Sequence record: MH051917
Source of the DNA: Enterobacteria phage vB_EcoM_IME341
DNA length: 64,000 nt
Strand: one strand, 5' to 3'
Below the pieces are notes generated by a model, which searched no databases, was not told where the DNA came from, and worked only from the letters and a program-made list of their open reading frames with translations. Positions 43,802-48,480 of the stretch are shown piece by piece (position 1 is the first letter of the stretch; every line of letters begins with the position of its first letter). The position numbers and the translations under genes are program-made.

Positions 43802-43838
43802 GTTTACATCCCTCAGAGGACAGGGTATAATGTCCTCA
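43802..43838 (+). promoter_or_regulatory. early promoter cassette with 7-bp inverted repeat across the -10
   Basis: GTTTAC 43802-07; TATAAT 43826-31; GAGGACA vs TGTCCTC. Confidence 0.65.
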
Positions 43839-44515: not shown

Positions 44516-45058
44516 ATGAGTTTATATGATGACCTGATATCAAATATTGATTGGTTTAAACATAGCGGTCTTTCCCATGAAACTAATGCAGTTCTTTATA
44601 GAATTCGCCAAGACCTAGGTTATTCCAATGATTTCTTAAGTCGAACAAGTAGCCATGGACACACTACCAAATTGCCCTTTATCTTCGCTTTAGCTGAAGA
44701 CCTTTCTTTTGCAGAAGCTTTAGAAATTATTGACGTAAATCTGGGTATTCAACGAGTGGAATTCGCTGGATTATGCTATTCAGTATACGCTTTAAATGAA
44801 CCAAGTGATTGTAAACAGCTTGTTGATGCTGACGATGATTACCATTTAGTATGCTATTTGATGTTAGAAAATGGTGACCACTTTGGTATGGTCGACCGCC
44901 GCCCGAGTTATTCGGATATTAAAAATTACGATAAAGATGAGCTTATTATTTTGGCTAATGAGTATACATCAGAGATTCGAAAACAACAACGGAAGCTTAA
45001 TCGTTTTATTGCTGAATGTCGCGAATACGCTAAAGAGGTTCAAAATGGAACGGCCTAG
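44516..45058 (+). CDS. hypothetical protein, C-terminal ...NRFIAECRE
   Basis: 180-aa ORF after GGAGGAGAGGAG. Confidence 0.5.
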   Translation: MSLYDDLISNIDWFKHSGLSHETNAVLYRIRQDLGYSNDFLSRTSSHGHTTKLPFIFALAEDLSFAEALEIIDVNLGIQRVEFAGLCYSVYALNEPSDCKQLVDADDDYHLVCYLMLENGDHFGMVDRRPSYSDIKNYDKDELIILANEYTSEIRKQQRKLNRFIAECREYAKEVQNGTA

Positions 45059-45398
45059 TCTTTCATCACATGTTTATCAATTGGCTGAATATGATATTGC
45101 TATTTCCTTATTTATGGGAATTGTCACCGGTATGCTAGGAGGTTTGGTTGGTCTGGTAATGACCACGGTTATGGCGGCAATCGAAGGAGTCACGCCTATT
45201 GAGATGGGTTTTTATATGATAATCGCTCCGGCTGTCGTGGCTTATTTTATCCCTGTTGTGTATGATATTTGCCATACAAACGCTTTGAATGCTCCCATCC
45301 GTAAGAGATATGCTTTAGAGATGGCTAATTATAATGAGCATGTAAAACAAACTAAACGTAATGACCTTGAAATCTTTATTAAGGAATGTAAATCATGA
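45045..45398 (+). CDS. small membrane protein, C-terminal ...EIFIKECKS
   Basis: two TM segments; coupled to next gene. Confidence 0.5.
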   Translation: MERPSLSSHVYQLAEYDIAISLFMGIVTGMLGGLVGLVMTTVMAAIEGVTPIEMGFYMIIAPAVVAYFIPVVYDICHTNALNAPIRKRYALEMANYNEHVKQTKRNDLEIFIKECKS

Positions 45399-45685
45399 AT
45401 AAAATTGAAATCGAAATCCCAGAACACAACGATGAGAAATCTGCAGAAAAGGCTATCTATGCTCTTCTGAATAAAGTGAATACCATCGAACATGAATGTG
45501 AAGCTATTGCCGATAAGTATGGTATCCAATTCGGTACCGGTGATTATGGTTCAGGCCGTACATATTATCCTGTCGGTTATGAATGCTCCCAGTGGTTTAA
45601 AGATGAAATTGAAAACAACGGCGGTGAAGTTGAAAACGGCGTCGTTACAGTTGGTGCTTGGGTCTCCTCTTCAGCAATGTGCTAA
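45395..45685 (+). CDS. tandem-family member A (C-terminus GAWVSSSAMC)
   Basis: TAAGGA RBS; shared C-terminal motif. Confidence 0.6.
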   Translation: MNKIEIEIPEHNDEKSAEKAIYALLNKVNTIEHECEAIADKYGIQFGTGDYGSGRTYYPVGYECSQWFKDEIENNGGEVENGVVTVGAWVSSSAMC

Positions 45686-45694
45686 GGAAACGCT

Positions 45695-45976
45695 ATGATG
45701 AATGATAACCATAACAACCCGGAGCTTCTGGCCGCAGTAAAAGAAATCCATGAAGCTATTCGTCGTGCTGAGGAAATTGCAGACAAATATGAGACTCATT
45801 TTAATATATACCCTGCTCGCGGTATGGGCGGTGACTATTATTCTCCTGGCGCCCTGAAAGCTGACCTGGCCCACTGGGAAGAAGATGGTCATCCTGAATG
45901 GGCTATTGTTAATACTCATGACTATACAACTGACCTGGAAAATGGTGGTTGGGTGTCCTCTTCTTCTGAATGTTAA
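45695..45976 (+). CDS. tandem-family member B (C-terminus GGWVSSSSEC)
   Basis: TAAGGA RBS overlapping upstream stop; shared motif. Confidence 0.6.
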   Translation: MMNDNHNNPELLAAVKEIHEAIRRAEEIADKYETHFNIYPARGMGGDYYSPGALKADLAHWEEDGHPEWAIVNTHDYTTDLENGGWVSSSSEC

Positions 45977-45985
45977 GGAATTATT

Positions 45986-46183
45986 ATGTCTCGTGAATTA
46001 GATTGTGCAATCCGTACTGCAGCCGCAGCTATTGAAAACGTTATCCAGATTTGTAAAGAAGAACGCGAAGAAGCCGATATCTATATCGATGGTGTTCGTG
46101 ACCTAGAACGACATATCACGCTTTATAACGGTTGTATTACTATTAGTGGTACCTCTTGGGTGTCCTCCTCTTACGAATGCTAA
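45986..46183 (+). CDS. tandem-family member C (C-terminus TSWVSSSYEC)
   Basis: as above. Confidence 0.6.
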   Translation: MSRELDCAIRTAAAAIENVIQICKEEREEADIYIDGVRDLERHITLYNGCITISGTSWVSSSYEC

Positions 46184-46192
46184 GGAAATAAA

Positions 46193-46402
46193 ATGACTAT
46201 TGATGAAATTGAAAAACAAATCCGTGAATTAGTACGTAAAGGCCAGTCTGTGGCTGACGAAACAGGTCAGCACTTCCACGCTGGTGGCGAAGAATATATT
46301 CCAGCTTCTAGTCCGGAATATGATGATTACGAATGGGTCCGTGATGACTACGGTATTCCTGAAGGTGAAGGTTTCTGGTTTAGCTCCTCTATGTCTTGCT
46401 AA
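46193..46402 (+). CDS. tandem-family member D (C-terminus GFWFSSSMSC)
   Basis: as above. Confidence 0.6.
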   Translation: MTIDEIEKQIRELVRKGQSVADETGQHFHAGGEEYIPASSPEYDDYEWVRDDYGIPEGEGFWFSSSMSC

Positions 46403-46412
46403 GGTGATAAAA

Positions 46413-46637
46413 ATGACTGATATTAATGAATTAGAAAAAGCGGCACTTGAACTGGCTGCACTGTATAAGAAAGTAAAAGATATGGCTTCTGCTCAGGATT
46501 TTGGTGTTGAGCTCGATGATTATGACGGTGAAGTTCGTCTCGAAGATTGGCTGAATAGCTCTTGTTATGGTGAAGAAGCTGGTCGCACCTTCGTTGCTCG
46601 GTCCGATGGTAAAATCTGGTACCCAAGCTCATGCTAA
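46413..46637 (+). CDS. tandem-family member E (C-terminus KIWYPSSC)
   Basis: as above; degenerate motif. Confidence 0.55.
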   Translation: MTDINELEKAALELAALYKKVKDMASAQDFGVELDDYDGEVRLEDWLNSSCYGEEAGRTFVARSDGKIWYPSSC

Positions 46638-46858
46638 AATTGAAAAAACGATACATTCGTAAAATAAACGGTCTTCGCGATTATGCCAAAGGTTGGCCAC
46701 TAAGTATTATTATGGCTGATAGACACCCACGTTATAATACCGAGATGACTTATTACAAAAAGTATGATTCGTATTGTCGGTCTAAAGCAGGCCGTTTAGA
46801 TGGTTCTTACGAAGACTATTTTGGTAAAAAACCTACTCGTGTTTCGTTAGGAAAATAA
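46631..46858 (+). CDS. hypothetical basic protein
   Basis: 75-aa ORF, weak RBS. Confidence 0.35.
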   Translation: MLKLKKRYIRKINGLRDYAKGWPLSIIMADRHPRYNTEMTYYKKYDSYCRSKAGRLDGSYEDYFGKKPTRVSLGK

Positions 46859-46888
46859 TTTAACCACATGGATGTGGTAGGAGGACTT

Positions 46889-47218
46889 ATGCATAAAGAT
46901 TCAGTATTCAAATATCTTTTGAAAACAGATAAAGAATTCTATATGAATGGGCAAGCCTTCTTGTTCGTTCGTGGTAAACGTGAGATGTTTTACAAATGCG
47001 ACCTCTCAATGCACCATCATATGTATCACACCCATGGCGAGCCTATACTGGGGTTCTCTGGTGACGAAACTAGACGTATAGCTATGTACTACGACCATTT
47101 TAAGCTCAATGATTGTGGTGACAACGCTCTGGTCTGGAATCCATCTTGGCGTCGTTGGGATACGGTAGACAACGATAAATTATTTTTAGAATATTGCAGA
47201 AGTGATGTACAACTCTAA
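46889..47218 (+). CDS. hypothetical His-rich protein
   Basis: ATG 46889 after AGGAGGA. Confidence 0.45.
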   Translation: MHKDSVFKYLLKTDKEFYMNGQAFLFVRGKREMFYKCDLSMHHHMYHTHGEPILGFSGDETRRIAMYYDHFKLNDCGDNALVWNPSWRRWDTVDNDKLFLEYCRSDVQL

Positions 47219-47234
47219 AAATACGTGTTACTAT
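47207..47234 (+). promoter_or_regulatory. early promoter variant (TGTACA -35, TACTAT -10)
   Basis: leader ACACAAACATGAGGAGAAC shared with the denV leader. Confidence 0.45.
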
Positions 47235-47261
47235 TACCCTACACAAACATGAGGAGAACAT

Positions 47262-47501
47262 ATGTGGTATTACGCTCCGATGTCCGATAAGTCTAATGAA
47301 CCGGTACGCATTACTCGTGCCAAGTTTAAAAAGATTTATGGCTTTGCTTATAAGAAGTCTGATTACGGTGTTCGTTTTGAAGATGCTCACTGTATCAATG
47401 ACCCTTATGCAGAAGAAATTTCTAATGAGATAATTCCTATCGTTGAGAGTAATTCCAATGATATGTGGGAATTGCATAACACTTACGTTGCCGAAATTTA
47501 A
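47262..47501 (+). CDS. hypothetical protein
   Basis: 79-aa ORF after GAGGAG. Confidence 0.5.
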   Translation: MWYYAPMSDKSNEPVRITRAKFKKIYGFAYKKSDYGVRFEDAHCINDPYAEEISNEIIPIVESNSNDMWELHNTYVAEI

Positions 47502-47520: not shown

Positions 47521-48480
47521 ATGATGCTAGTTATTGGTTCTCGCGCACTGCACCACGCTGGTCTGATTGAAAATAAGTATATCGAAAATTCTGATTGGGA
47601 TTTCATTGCCGACCAAGGCTCATGGAACCACTTTAAAGCTCGGATGTTCGGCGCCCATGTACACGTTGACAATCCTGATGTTCAGGCTTTCAAATGTATG
47701 CATAATGGTAAAGAAACCTATTTCGAAGCTTATATCGTCCGTGCTCTGACTAACGTACGTGAAATCACTGGTGAGCTCCAAGACGAAGATTTCACCTCAA
47801 GTTATCGTCTCCTGAAATATGCTGAAAATCGTATTAAAAAGGACCGTCTTACAGGTTTCTATTGGGCTACGCCTGATATCTGTCTGGCTATCAAAACCTC
47901 TCATCGTTTCCTGAAGAATAATCCTTTCTTCTTGAAAACTATGTCCCACATCAAATACCTTCGTAATAAAGGTATCACCCTGAATGAAGAACTCCAGGAA
48001 ATTATGCTGCAGCGTCAAAAAGAAACGTTGAGCTATTCCCACCCTAAATTGGATGTAAACAAATCATCGTTCTTTAACGATACCATTTATACGCTAGACC
48101 ACGACTCTATCCATGAAGCCGTGGCATTGGCAGGGCGCCCGGCATATACCTTTTATATGAAGGAAGGTTCTGAAGTCATGACCTCTCGTGAGAAGTTCGA
48201 GGCTTTGCCTGAAGCTATTAAACTGGCTGGTGTATATGAAGAAACTTGTGTCCTGGCACTAGAACGTTCACAGGTTCCTAATGACTTCAATATTTCACCA
48301 TCATTAAGTTTCTATATGGCTCTTGAGAAAGTGTGTACCTCAATCACTTCAGGTTGGTTCCGTGAGTACGCCTGGGAAAACTACCAAGCTGTGGTTAATA
48401 TGTACAAGACTTTAGGTGAAAACGACTACATCAAACGATTCCAAGATAACCATCATTTAATTCGTCCTTTCGAAAAATAA
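47521..48480 (+). CDS. hypothetical protein with possible G-S...D-x-D nucleotidyltransferase-like N-terminus
   Basis: ATG 47521 after GAGGAAAA; IGSRALHHAG...SDWDF; weak. Confidence 0.5.
   Translation: MMLVIGSRALHHAGLIENKYIENSDWDFIADQGSWNHFKARMFGAHVHVDNPDVQAFKCMHNGKETYFEAYIVRALTNVREITGELQDEDFTSSYRLLKYAENRIKKDRLTGFYWATPDICLAIKTSHRFLKNNPFFLKTMSHIKYLRNKGITLNEELQEIMLQRQKETLSYSHPKLDVNKSSFFNDTIYTLDHDSIHEAVALAGRPAYTFYMKEGSEVMTSREKFEALPEAIKLAGVYEETCVLALERSQVPNDFNISPSLSFYMALEKVCTSITSGWFREYAWENYQAVVNMYKTLGENDYIKRFQDNHHLIRPFEK

Follow-up and report, generated by a model that had tools for sequence, protein, structure and literature searches.

Small Cys-tailed phage proteins encoded in tandem are a locally expanded part of a conserved two-gene module with a MenT-like nucleotidyltransferase

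Introduction

The closest described counterpart of the locus reported here is MenAT1 of M. tuberculosis, a two-gene unit in which a very short helical protein is encoded together with a pol-beta nucleotidyltransferase (NTase), the DUF1814 toxin MenT1. Our locus lies in a 64,000-nucleotide stretch of DNA from Enterobacteria phage vB_EcoM_IME341 (sequence record MH051917), which we call the window and in which position 1 is the first letter. It contains a tandem array of five small genes, here called copies A to E, whose products share a C-terminal tail with the motif W-x-S-S-x-x-Cys. We find that in this array one of the two genes of a conserved phage module has undergone a lineage-specific expansion. 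The module encodes a small partner protein and a pol-beta NTase, neither of which has a described function in the literature that we found.

MenA1 is a 68-amino-acid (aa) helical protein that is encoded next to MenT1 and blocks the MenT1 active site (PMC10435456), and its N-terminal helix causes MenT1 to phosphorylate itself on Thr39 in the NTase active site (PMC11375011). The phage module likewise pairs the gene of a very short helical protein with that of a pol-beta NTase, its enzyme also has the G-S, D-x-D, and third carboxylate motifs, and its small partner also has a long N-terminal helix (residues 9-32 in the model of copy B) and stands beside an NTase of MenT fold. In contrast, the phage small proteins resemble MenA1 neither in sequence nor, to a significant degree, in fold, the phage enzyme has an additional helical DUF7275 domain of ~180 aa and no DUF1814 match in Pfam, and the phage partners are multi-copy and acidic and bear the invariant C-terminal W-x-S-S-x-x-Cys. 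MenAT1 is found on bacterial chromosomes, whereas the phage module is found in lytic phage genomes. By analogy, the module may work most like MenAT1, although its small protein is not homologous to MenA1 and its enzyme does not have the DUF1814 signature, which places it outside that family.

Two further kinds of system invite comparison. In HepT-MntA, a pol-beta-type NTase poly-adenylylates its small partner covalently on a hydroxyl residue (Tyr), and HepT, the partner, belongs to the HEPN RNases and has an R-x4-6-H motif. This system is a precedent for reading the phage tail as an acceptor. No HEPN motif or fold was seen here, however, and MNT is a far smaller protein than the phage enzyme. 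The precursors of ribosomally synthesized and post-translationally modified peptides (RiPPs) and of scaffold peptides (lanthipeptide, mycofactocin, PQQ) are, as here, encoded by tandem small genes beside one enzyme gene, and they too have a helical N-terminal part followed by a Ser/Cys C-terminal motif in which the last residues are conserved and reactive. The phage small proteins differ from such precursors in having a predicted fold, that of small domains, and no export signal, and a clustering of neighbouring genes, which recovered only the NTase, showed no conserved RiPP-type dehydratase, cyclase, radical-SAM, YcaO, or protease gene nearby.

The small genes and an NTase gene form a two-component module

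A gene with DUF7277 and DUF7275 matches lies 0.9 kb downstream of copy E on the same strand (Table 1). A small gene directly upstream of a DUF7277+DUF7275 gene encoding ~310-347 aa was likewise seen in all three distant contigs inspected, i.e., a 378-kb jumbo phage, a 136-kb phage, and a 44-kb T4-like contig. The linkage was then tested in three ways. In the forward direction, an alignment of the enzyme was used to collect 80 IMG/VR loci, and 5 kb was searched with a hidden Markov model (HMM) of the small family: 68 of the 80 loci contain one to six HMM-detected small-family open reading frames (ORFs), all on the same strand as the enzyme gene and almost all upstream of it, and 7 of the remaining 12 contain divergent Cys-tailed ORFs. 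In the reverse direction, 22 loci with small-family ORFs were picked out by their match to a degenerate DNA pattern for AYGMGGTY, and the enzyme gene follows downstream in all 17-18 where downstream DNA is present. For an unbiased test, we clustered all ORFs lying up to 3.5 kb from an enzyme gene, for 89 such genes from 22 clades. The small family was recovered in 20 clades and 81 loci (174 members, 170 of them upstream), with a separate cluster of E-type proteins adding 36 loci, and the next-best neighbour family of the enzyme occurs in only 4 of the 22 clades. The module has two components and no third conserved gene.

In GenBank, Pseudomonas phage phiPsa347 has four copies of the small gene, Phapecoctavirus ASO2A three, Acinetobacter phage Lazarus two, and the jumbo phage Munch one, and in Stenotrophomonas phage Bhz51 the small copies lie downstream of the enzyme. 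The first-pass annotation of the window, which was made from the sequence alone and overlooked the enzyme gene, placed the array in a hyperplastic early region. With one to six copies elsewhere and modules also in jumbo phages, in Otagovirus and Phapecoctavirus, and in Acinetobacter, Aeromonas, and Stenotrophomonas phages, the array is no peculiarity of a hyperplastic T4-like region but a local expansion of a conserved module component. The largest expansion seen is in two IMG/VR contigs of ~168 kb (L092 3362-6367 and L097 3552-6537), where each enzyme gene has six copies, five upstream and one downstream, with the unusual tails W-x-x-S-S-C, W-x-G-S-S-C, and W-Q-P-S-A-x-x-C.

The enzyme was found in 733 phage records, as against 279 for copy B (tblastn). 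Taken alone, this difference would suggest an enzyme independent of the array, but a model of the whole small family overturned that reading. Another explanation is that the small proteins act alone on host targets, for example as acidic nucleic-acid mimics or as inhibitors that ligate the metal of a host enzyme with the Cys thiol and carboxylate, and that they only travel together with the enzyme in an early accessory island. Their strong negative charge and small size, their diverging bodies and variable copy number, the early-type transcription unit among accessory genes, and the three unrelated ORFs that intervene in this phage would all suit independent effectors. We nevertheless regard this explanation as quite unlikely, given that the adjacency recurs across enzyme clades of unrelated phage groups while all other neighbours differ, and that the small family was never found without the enzyme where flanking DNA was available in the sample examined.

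The C-terminal tail is constrained at the protein level

The five ORFs of the array are real genes and are probably expressed. Their coordinates and tails are as the first-pass annotation had given them, and so are the Ser codons that it quoted and their description as diverged small paralogues. Of the trace IADKY..F that it noted in three copies, the form IAD-x-x-G/E-x-x-F is present in copies A, B, and D. All five proteins end in W-x-[S/A/P]-S-S-x-x-Cys, copy E in the shortened form W-x-P-S-S-C. Within the 64 kb, a match to W..SS..C at the very end of an ORF is found in the five array ORFs only, and among the 957 stop-to-stop segments with a length of 30 aa or more, Cys is the last residue in just 31, which puts the motif of the array far beyond chance. 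The proteins are acidic, with isoelectric points of 4.2-4.6 and net charges of -6 to -12. Copy A has both the N-terminal helix and the hairpin motif of the family described below, copy B has IADKY and RGMGG (with Tyr replaced by Arg), copy D has VADETG without YGxGG, and copies C and E have the helix only. Copies C, D, and E have thus lost the hairpin motif and retained the tail.

The genes are tightly packed. The gaps within the array are 9-10 nt, with TAAGGA or TAAGGT lying over each stop codon as the Shine-Dalgarno sequence. The start codon of copy A overlaps the stop codon of the preceding gene (ATGA), and the ATG of the downstream neighbour overlaps the end of copy E. The A/B, B/C, and C/D junctions have in common a stretch of 48 nt with 65-79% identity that spans tail, stop codon, Shine-Dalgarno sequence, and start codon, so the copies are also recognisably homologous at the DNA level. 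The first-pass annotation had held that the motif is maintained in the protein and is not a DNA repeat, and these junctions qualify the second half of that claim. The first half stands: in a set of 94 distinct tails taken from other phages, Ser -4 and Ser -3 are encoded by all six Ser codons (TCN and AGY), and the constraint is on the protein. In the same tails, the terminal Cys codon is TGC in 64 and TGT in 30, and the stop codon is TAA in 88. The preference for TAA is accounted for by the TAAGGA Shine-Dalgarno sequence that overlaps the stop codon, which leaves the Cys codon unexplained. A Shine-Dalgarno constraint as the cause of the Cys codon was rejected, as TGC and TGT are both kept, also in single-copy modules with other spacing. 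An explanation by DNA repeats was likewise rejected, since the only repeat is the tail-to-start junction in copies A, B, and C and codon usage across phages shows a constraint at the protein level. The terminal Cys is kept, with differing sequences, in the orthologous arrays of Klebsiella phage Marfa (five copies), Serratia phage 92A1 (three), Citrobacter phage Moon (three), and the Mosigvirus phages HX01 and ST0 (three each).

A search of 1.84 billion representative sequences with a profile of the five copies and their close relatives (E-value at most 1e-3) returned 365 clusters at 50% identity, nearly all of 64-144 aa and with a match that reaches the last residue. The copies in the window are diverged members of this large unannotated family. 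Cys is the last residue in 134 of the 146 new representatives listed, and for the 132 of these that are no longer than 120 aa we compiled tail statistics. Trp stands at -7 in 130, Ser at -4 in 131, and Ser at -3 also in 131; the Cys is the only one in the whole protein in 80, additional internal W-x-S-S-x-C motifs occur in 10, a Y/W-G-x-G-G motif occurs in 107, and the mean net charge is -7.8. The family consensus, M...EAExIADExGxxFxFxxAYGMGGTYxP...W...GGWxSSSxxC, describes an N-terminal helix of ~25 residues that ends in IADExG, a YGMGG hairpin, a variable acidic linker, a last strand G-W-x, and the tail, which is the most conserved element of the family. An AlphaFold2 (AF2) model of copy B with a predicted local distance difference test score of 77 has a helix at 9-32, strands at 35-38 and 46-49, a helix at 51-64, and a strand at 84-88.

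The first-pass annotation did not recognise the family, and neither do the databases. Scans of the five proteins against Pfam, NCBIfam, and PADLOC gave nothing above noise, canonical family members likewise have no Pfam match, a PDB sequence search with the family profile found no relative, and Foldseek against BFVD returned only uncharacterised phage proteins. Only PHROG places the copies, in phrog_899 (A, B, D, and E) and phrog_4882 (C), both annotated as "unknown function". These two PHROGs split one family into two groups and are silent on the tail and on the linkage to the enzyme. All named homologues are hypothetical phage proteins, and literature searches for DUF7275, DUF7277, PF23940, YGMGG, WVSSS, and RB69 ORF134c-137c found nothing relevant. 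One 436-aa protein with four tandem repeats of ~100 aa (P0080) matched the family profile at E 3.8e-9 via positions 23-67 only and has no tail; it is probably an unrelated, compositional match.

Gene names here follow Escherichia phage IME08 (Dhakavirus, NC_014260, reverse strand), to which the region is a 100% match. The RefSeq record NC_014260 has no coding sequence for copy D (46193-46402), and its orf120 (within window 46193-46637) is copy E over-extended to 129 aa from a start upstream, inside copy D. Per its homologues, copy E starts at ATG 46413. The reference annotation is thereby corrected in two places, for one array copy that was absent and one that was over-extended.

The partner enzyme is a pol-beta nucleotidyltransferase

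In an alignment of 48 homologues, G6-S7, D25-x-D27, and E69, which make up the pol-beta NTase triad, are invariant, as are K125, H128, H174-P175, D193-H194-D195, H198, E240-E241, E248-R249, C272, and R281. Motifs I (hG[GS]), II ([DE]h[DE]h), and III (h[DE]h) are present in these sequences. Motif IV (K-L-x-a-x-x-x-R) is absent from the enzyme, the nearest sequence being K125-M-S-H-R129 with a different spacing, and the DUF1814 profile gives no match, Pfam returning DUF7277 and DUF7275 only. The enzyme has the bi-lobed MenT fold. Fold comparison gave 10.1 for the MenT1 toxin, 8.7 for ANT(2'')-Ia, 8.5 for TglT/MenT3, 7.7 for MenT4, 7.6 for TM1012, and 7.1 for LnuA; for the helical DUF7275 half there was no good fold match. 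Sequence searches of PDB, NCBIfam, and PADLOC with the enzyme found nothing. The enzyme is a highly conserved pol-beta NTase whose fold is nearest to the MenT/AbiEii toxins, which are transfer RNA (tRNA) nucleotidyltransferases, and to the O-nucleotidylyltransferases ANT(2'') and LnuA. MenT toxins add nucleotides to the 3' ends of tRNAs.

The enzyme ORF was listed from TTG 47443 (345 aa), while a start at ATG 47521 gives a protein of 319 aa that begins MMLVIGSRAL; orf117 ends just before this ATG. The ATG is the likely start because the PHROG and homologue alignments begin at residue 27 of the longer form.

A sister enzyme clade has a different partner

More distant DUF7275 enzymes were found in Streptomyces phage Wakanda, Gordonia phage Abscondus, Vibrio phages V09 and K408, and Pseudoalteromonas phage PH357. 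These enzymes do not have Cys272, the sequence KVCTSITSGW being replaced by KT[V/I]TS..., and no Cys-tailed ORF lies near any of the five. Next to them is an unrelated acidic protein of ~97-125 aa with a W-S-Y-Y-S-Y-x-G motif and the sequence ..GEGEGEYCYGII..WSYYSYNG..EVKPV.K.ITVYE (Table 1), which has no Pfam match and gives an hhalign probability of 0.1 against the Cys-tail family. Conversely, Cys272 is present in all 11 examined enzymes that have Cys-tailed partners.

Such an exchange of unrelated partners between enzyme clades is typical of toxin-antitoxin evolution and raises the possibility that the small proteins are antitoxin-like regulators without any tail chemistry. A MenT-like tRNA-modifying toxin or host-shutoff factor would then be neutralised or timed via the N-terminal helix, in the manner of MenA1, and the tail would be a signal for degradation or stability. 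The order of small gene then enzyme gene with tight spacing, the MenT-like fold of the enzyme, the long N-terminal helix of the small protein in the AF2 model, and its acidity would fit as well. On the other hand, up to six antitoxin copies per toxin would be unusual, the invariant part of the family is the tail and not the helix, a degron would need to be recognised in Escherichia, Acinetobacter, Pseudomonas, and Stenotrophomonas, and neither the sequence nor the fold of the small proteins is significantly similar to MenA1 or, the Phd/YefM fold being an uncertain case, to other antitoxins. We regard antitoxin-like regulation in this form as unlikely, if worth keeping in mind.

The co-occurrence of Cys272 with Cys-tailed partners would also suit a targeting role, in which the tail docks on the helical DUF7275 domain, the variable bodies recruit host proteins or RNAs, and the number of paralogues is the number of targets. 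One conserved enzyme facing one to six variable partners, and the retention of the tail on diverged bodies in this phage, would be in keeping with such adaptors. In most of the family, however, the body (the helix, IADExG, and the YGMGG hairpin) is well conserved and only the linker varies, and a body of 65-96 aa leaves little space for a separate target-binding surface, making targeting adaptors very improbable to us.

A possible role for the tail

We hold with moderate confidence that the small proteins are direct partners of the enzyme and that the tail acts as an acceptor or a pseudosubstrate in the catalytic cleft; independent effectors and targeting adaptors are both less likely. The genomic linkage, the conservation of the tail, the intact NTase triad and MenT-like fold, the MenAT1 precedents, the partner swap in the sister clade, and the acidity of the small proteins all speak for the partnership. 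The body of the small protein, a helix and a small sheet, would dock on the enzyme as the MenA1 helix does on MenT1, and the tail, with its SS(S)xxCys-COOH exposed after the last strand, would be delivered into the catalytic cleft. There the Trp could stack like a base, the Ser hydroxyls could take the place of the acceptor hydroxyl, and the thiolate and carboxylate of the terminal Cys could lie near the metal site or near Cys272 of the enzyme. The tail would then be covalently nucleotidylylated or phosphorylated, which is our first choice, or would gate the enzyme as a non-reactive pseudosubstrate. Diverged bodies with a retained tail would give one enzyme several partners that behave differently.

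We favour covalent transfer because the most conserved residues are the chemically reactive ones, because the motif can be duplicated within one protein, because a single enzyme serves several tag-bearing proteins, because a hydroxyl-rich motif defines the alternative partner family as well, and because modification of a protein hydroxyl is known from active sites of the MenT type. Only slightly less likely is a role as a non-reactive pseudosubstrate or as an antitoxin-like protein, for which the order of the genes, the acidity, and the exchange of unrelated partners from one enzyme clade to another all speak. The suggestion in the first-pass annotation that the C-terminus is a signal for recognition, modification, or targeting fits the genomic tie to a nucleotidyltransferase, and the tail, whose absence from related phages would have spoken against it, is conserved in related and very distant phages alike. 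Its interpretation is supported in part only, as the host-takeover or anti-defence role that it had also proposed found no support in the analysis.

Several observations weigh against the tail as an acceptor or pseudosubstrate. The closest structural relatives of the enzyme act on tRNA and not on proteins, and the C-terminus of MenA1 is dispensable, unlike the phage tail. The co-variation of Cys272 with the Cys-tailed partners rests on essentially one phylogenetic split, and so is a lead and no proof. In this phage, three unrelated ORFs lie between array and enzyme. One enzyme clade (L078, L081, L083, and L091) keeps Cys272 and has no Cys-tailed ORF within 5 kb; its partner may be elsewhere in the genome or lost. 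The analysis shows the genes, the motif and its constraint in the protein, the size of the family, the linkage, and the fold of the enzyme, whereas the physical interaction, the placement of the tail in the active site, the chemistry, and the biological role are inferred. In the clade just mentioned, a 178-aa ORF stands upstream of the enzyme in place of a Cys-tailed ORF (L078 4209-5714, also in L081, L083, and L091).

More tentatively still, the module could be an unrecognised phage system for protein modification, in which a MenT-like NTase nucleotidylylates or phosphorylates the W-x-S-S-x-x-Cys tag of acidic carriers, or primes from the tag, and the resulting nucleotide-protein conjugates are led by their variable bodies, of which this phage has five, to different host or defence targets; we consider this possible but doubtful. 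If the tag is modified, the chemistry would be a new kind of viral post-translational modification. Should the enzyme act on tRNA, as its MenT relatives do, the module would be relevant to the ways in which phages manipulate the translation machinery or protect it. An invariant encoded C-terminal Cys tag that is tied to one enzyme is a sharp experimental handle, and the module is widespread in large lytic phages, i.e., T4-like phages of enterobacteria, Aeromonas, Acinetobacter, and Yersinia, jumbo phages of ~350-380 kb, and Otagovirus, Phapecoctavirus, and Stenotrophomonas phages.

Surroundings of the array and of other modules

Table 1. Coordinates of the array, its partner enzyme, neighbouring features in the window, and the second partner family (E, E-value)
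Feature	Sequence	Coordinates	Strand	Description
Promoter-like site, sigma-70 type	window	43803-43831	+	TTTACA-17-TATAAT, 11/12; upstream of e.6
Copy A	window	45395-45685	+	96 aa; tail GAWVSSSAMC; retains IADKYG-x-F and YGSGRTYYP hairpin; phrog_899, E 1.4e-23; orthologues in phages Marfa, Moon, 92A1, HX01, ASO2A
Copy B	window	45695-45976	+	93 aa; tail GGWVSSSSEC; sole Cys is the last residue; phrog_899, E 3.4e-19
Copy C	window	45986-46183	+	65 aa; tail TSWVSSSYEC; helix and tail retained, YGxGG hairpin lost; phrog_4882, E 2.4e-36; orthologues in Marfa, HX01, ST0
Copy D	window	46193-46402	+	69 aa; tail GFWFSSSMSC; sole Cys is the last residue; phrog_899, E 2.2e-13; orthologues are family sequences P0008-P0017
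Copy E	window	46413-46637	+	74 aa; terminal KIWYPSSC and second, internal DWLNSSC; phrog_899, E 4.9e-10; E-type orthologues in Marfa, Moon, 92A1, ASO2A
Small ORF between array and enzyme	window	46631-46858	+	phrog_7065, function not annotated
Small ORF between array and enzyme	window	46868-47218	+	phrog_9796, function not annotated
Small ORF between array and enzyme (annotated orf117)	window	47262-47501	+	phrog_3723, function not annotated
Partner enzyme, DUF7277+DUF7275	window	47521-48480	+	319 aa from ATG; Pfam E 2e-77 and 3.5e-27
Second partner family	L138	4094-4393
Second partner family	L139	4100-4393
Second partner family	L140	3256-3552
Second partner family	L141	4114-4479
Second partner family	L142	4105-4485

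The array is flanked by a tRNA cluster, e.8, and e.6 on one side and by e.2, nudE, and e on the other. The promoter-like site upstream of e.6 is likely the early promoter of the co-directional string of genes that contains the array, and no late-promoter box TATAAATA was found on the + strand between 35.6 and 50.7 kb. Together, these two observations suggest that the array is likely expressed early or in the middle of infection, as predicted from the sequence. An explanation of the array as an RNA element was rejected, as no Rfam family matches at 43-49.5 kb. The three ORFs between array and enzyme (46631-47501) lie outside the conserved module of other clades.

In distant phages, the module was seen among genes of RNA-repair and anti-defence type. 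In locus L010, an Acb1 gene (PF23474, 7304-7765) lies directly downstream of the enzyme gene and an RNA ligase gene 3 kb beyond, and NAMPT, NUDIX, and PRPP-synthetase genes lie near the module in locus L012 and in Vibrio phage K408 (L141 1-2663). Genes for tRNAs lie near the module both in this phage and in Gordonia phage Abscondus.

The syntenic interval of T4, between e.2 and e.3, contains neither array nor enzyme. Just upstream of the array (window 44516-45398), the ORFs 44516-45058 (180 aa) and 44871-45398 (175 aa) overlap by ~190 nt. The true start of the second is probably near 45045, because its PHROG match begins at residue 59, and its product is a predicted membrane protein in a position like that of T4 e.3 and e.4.

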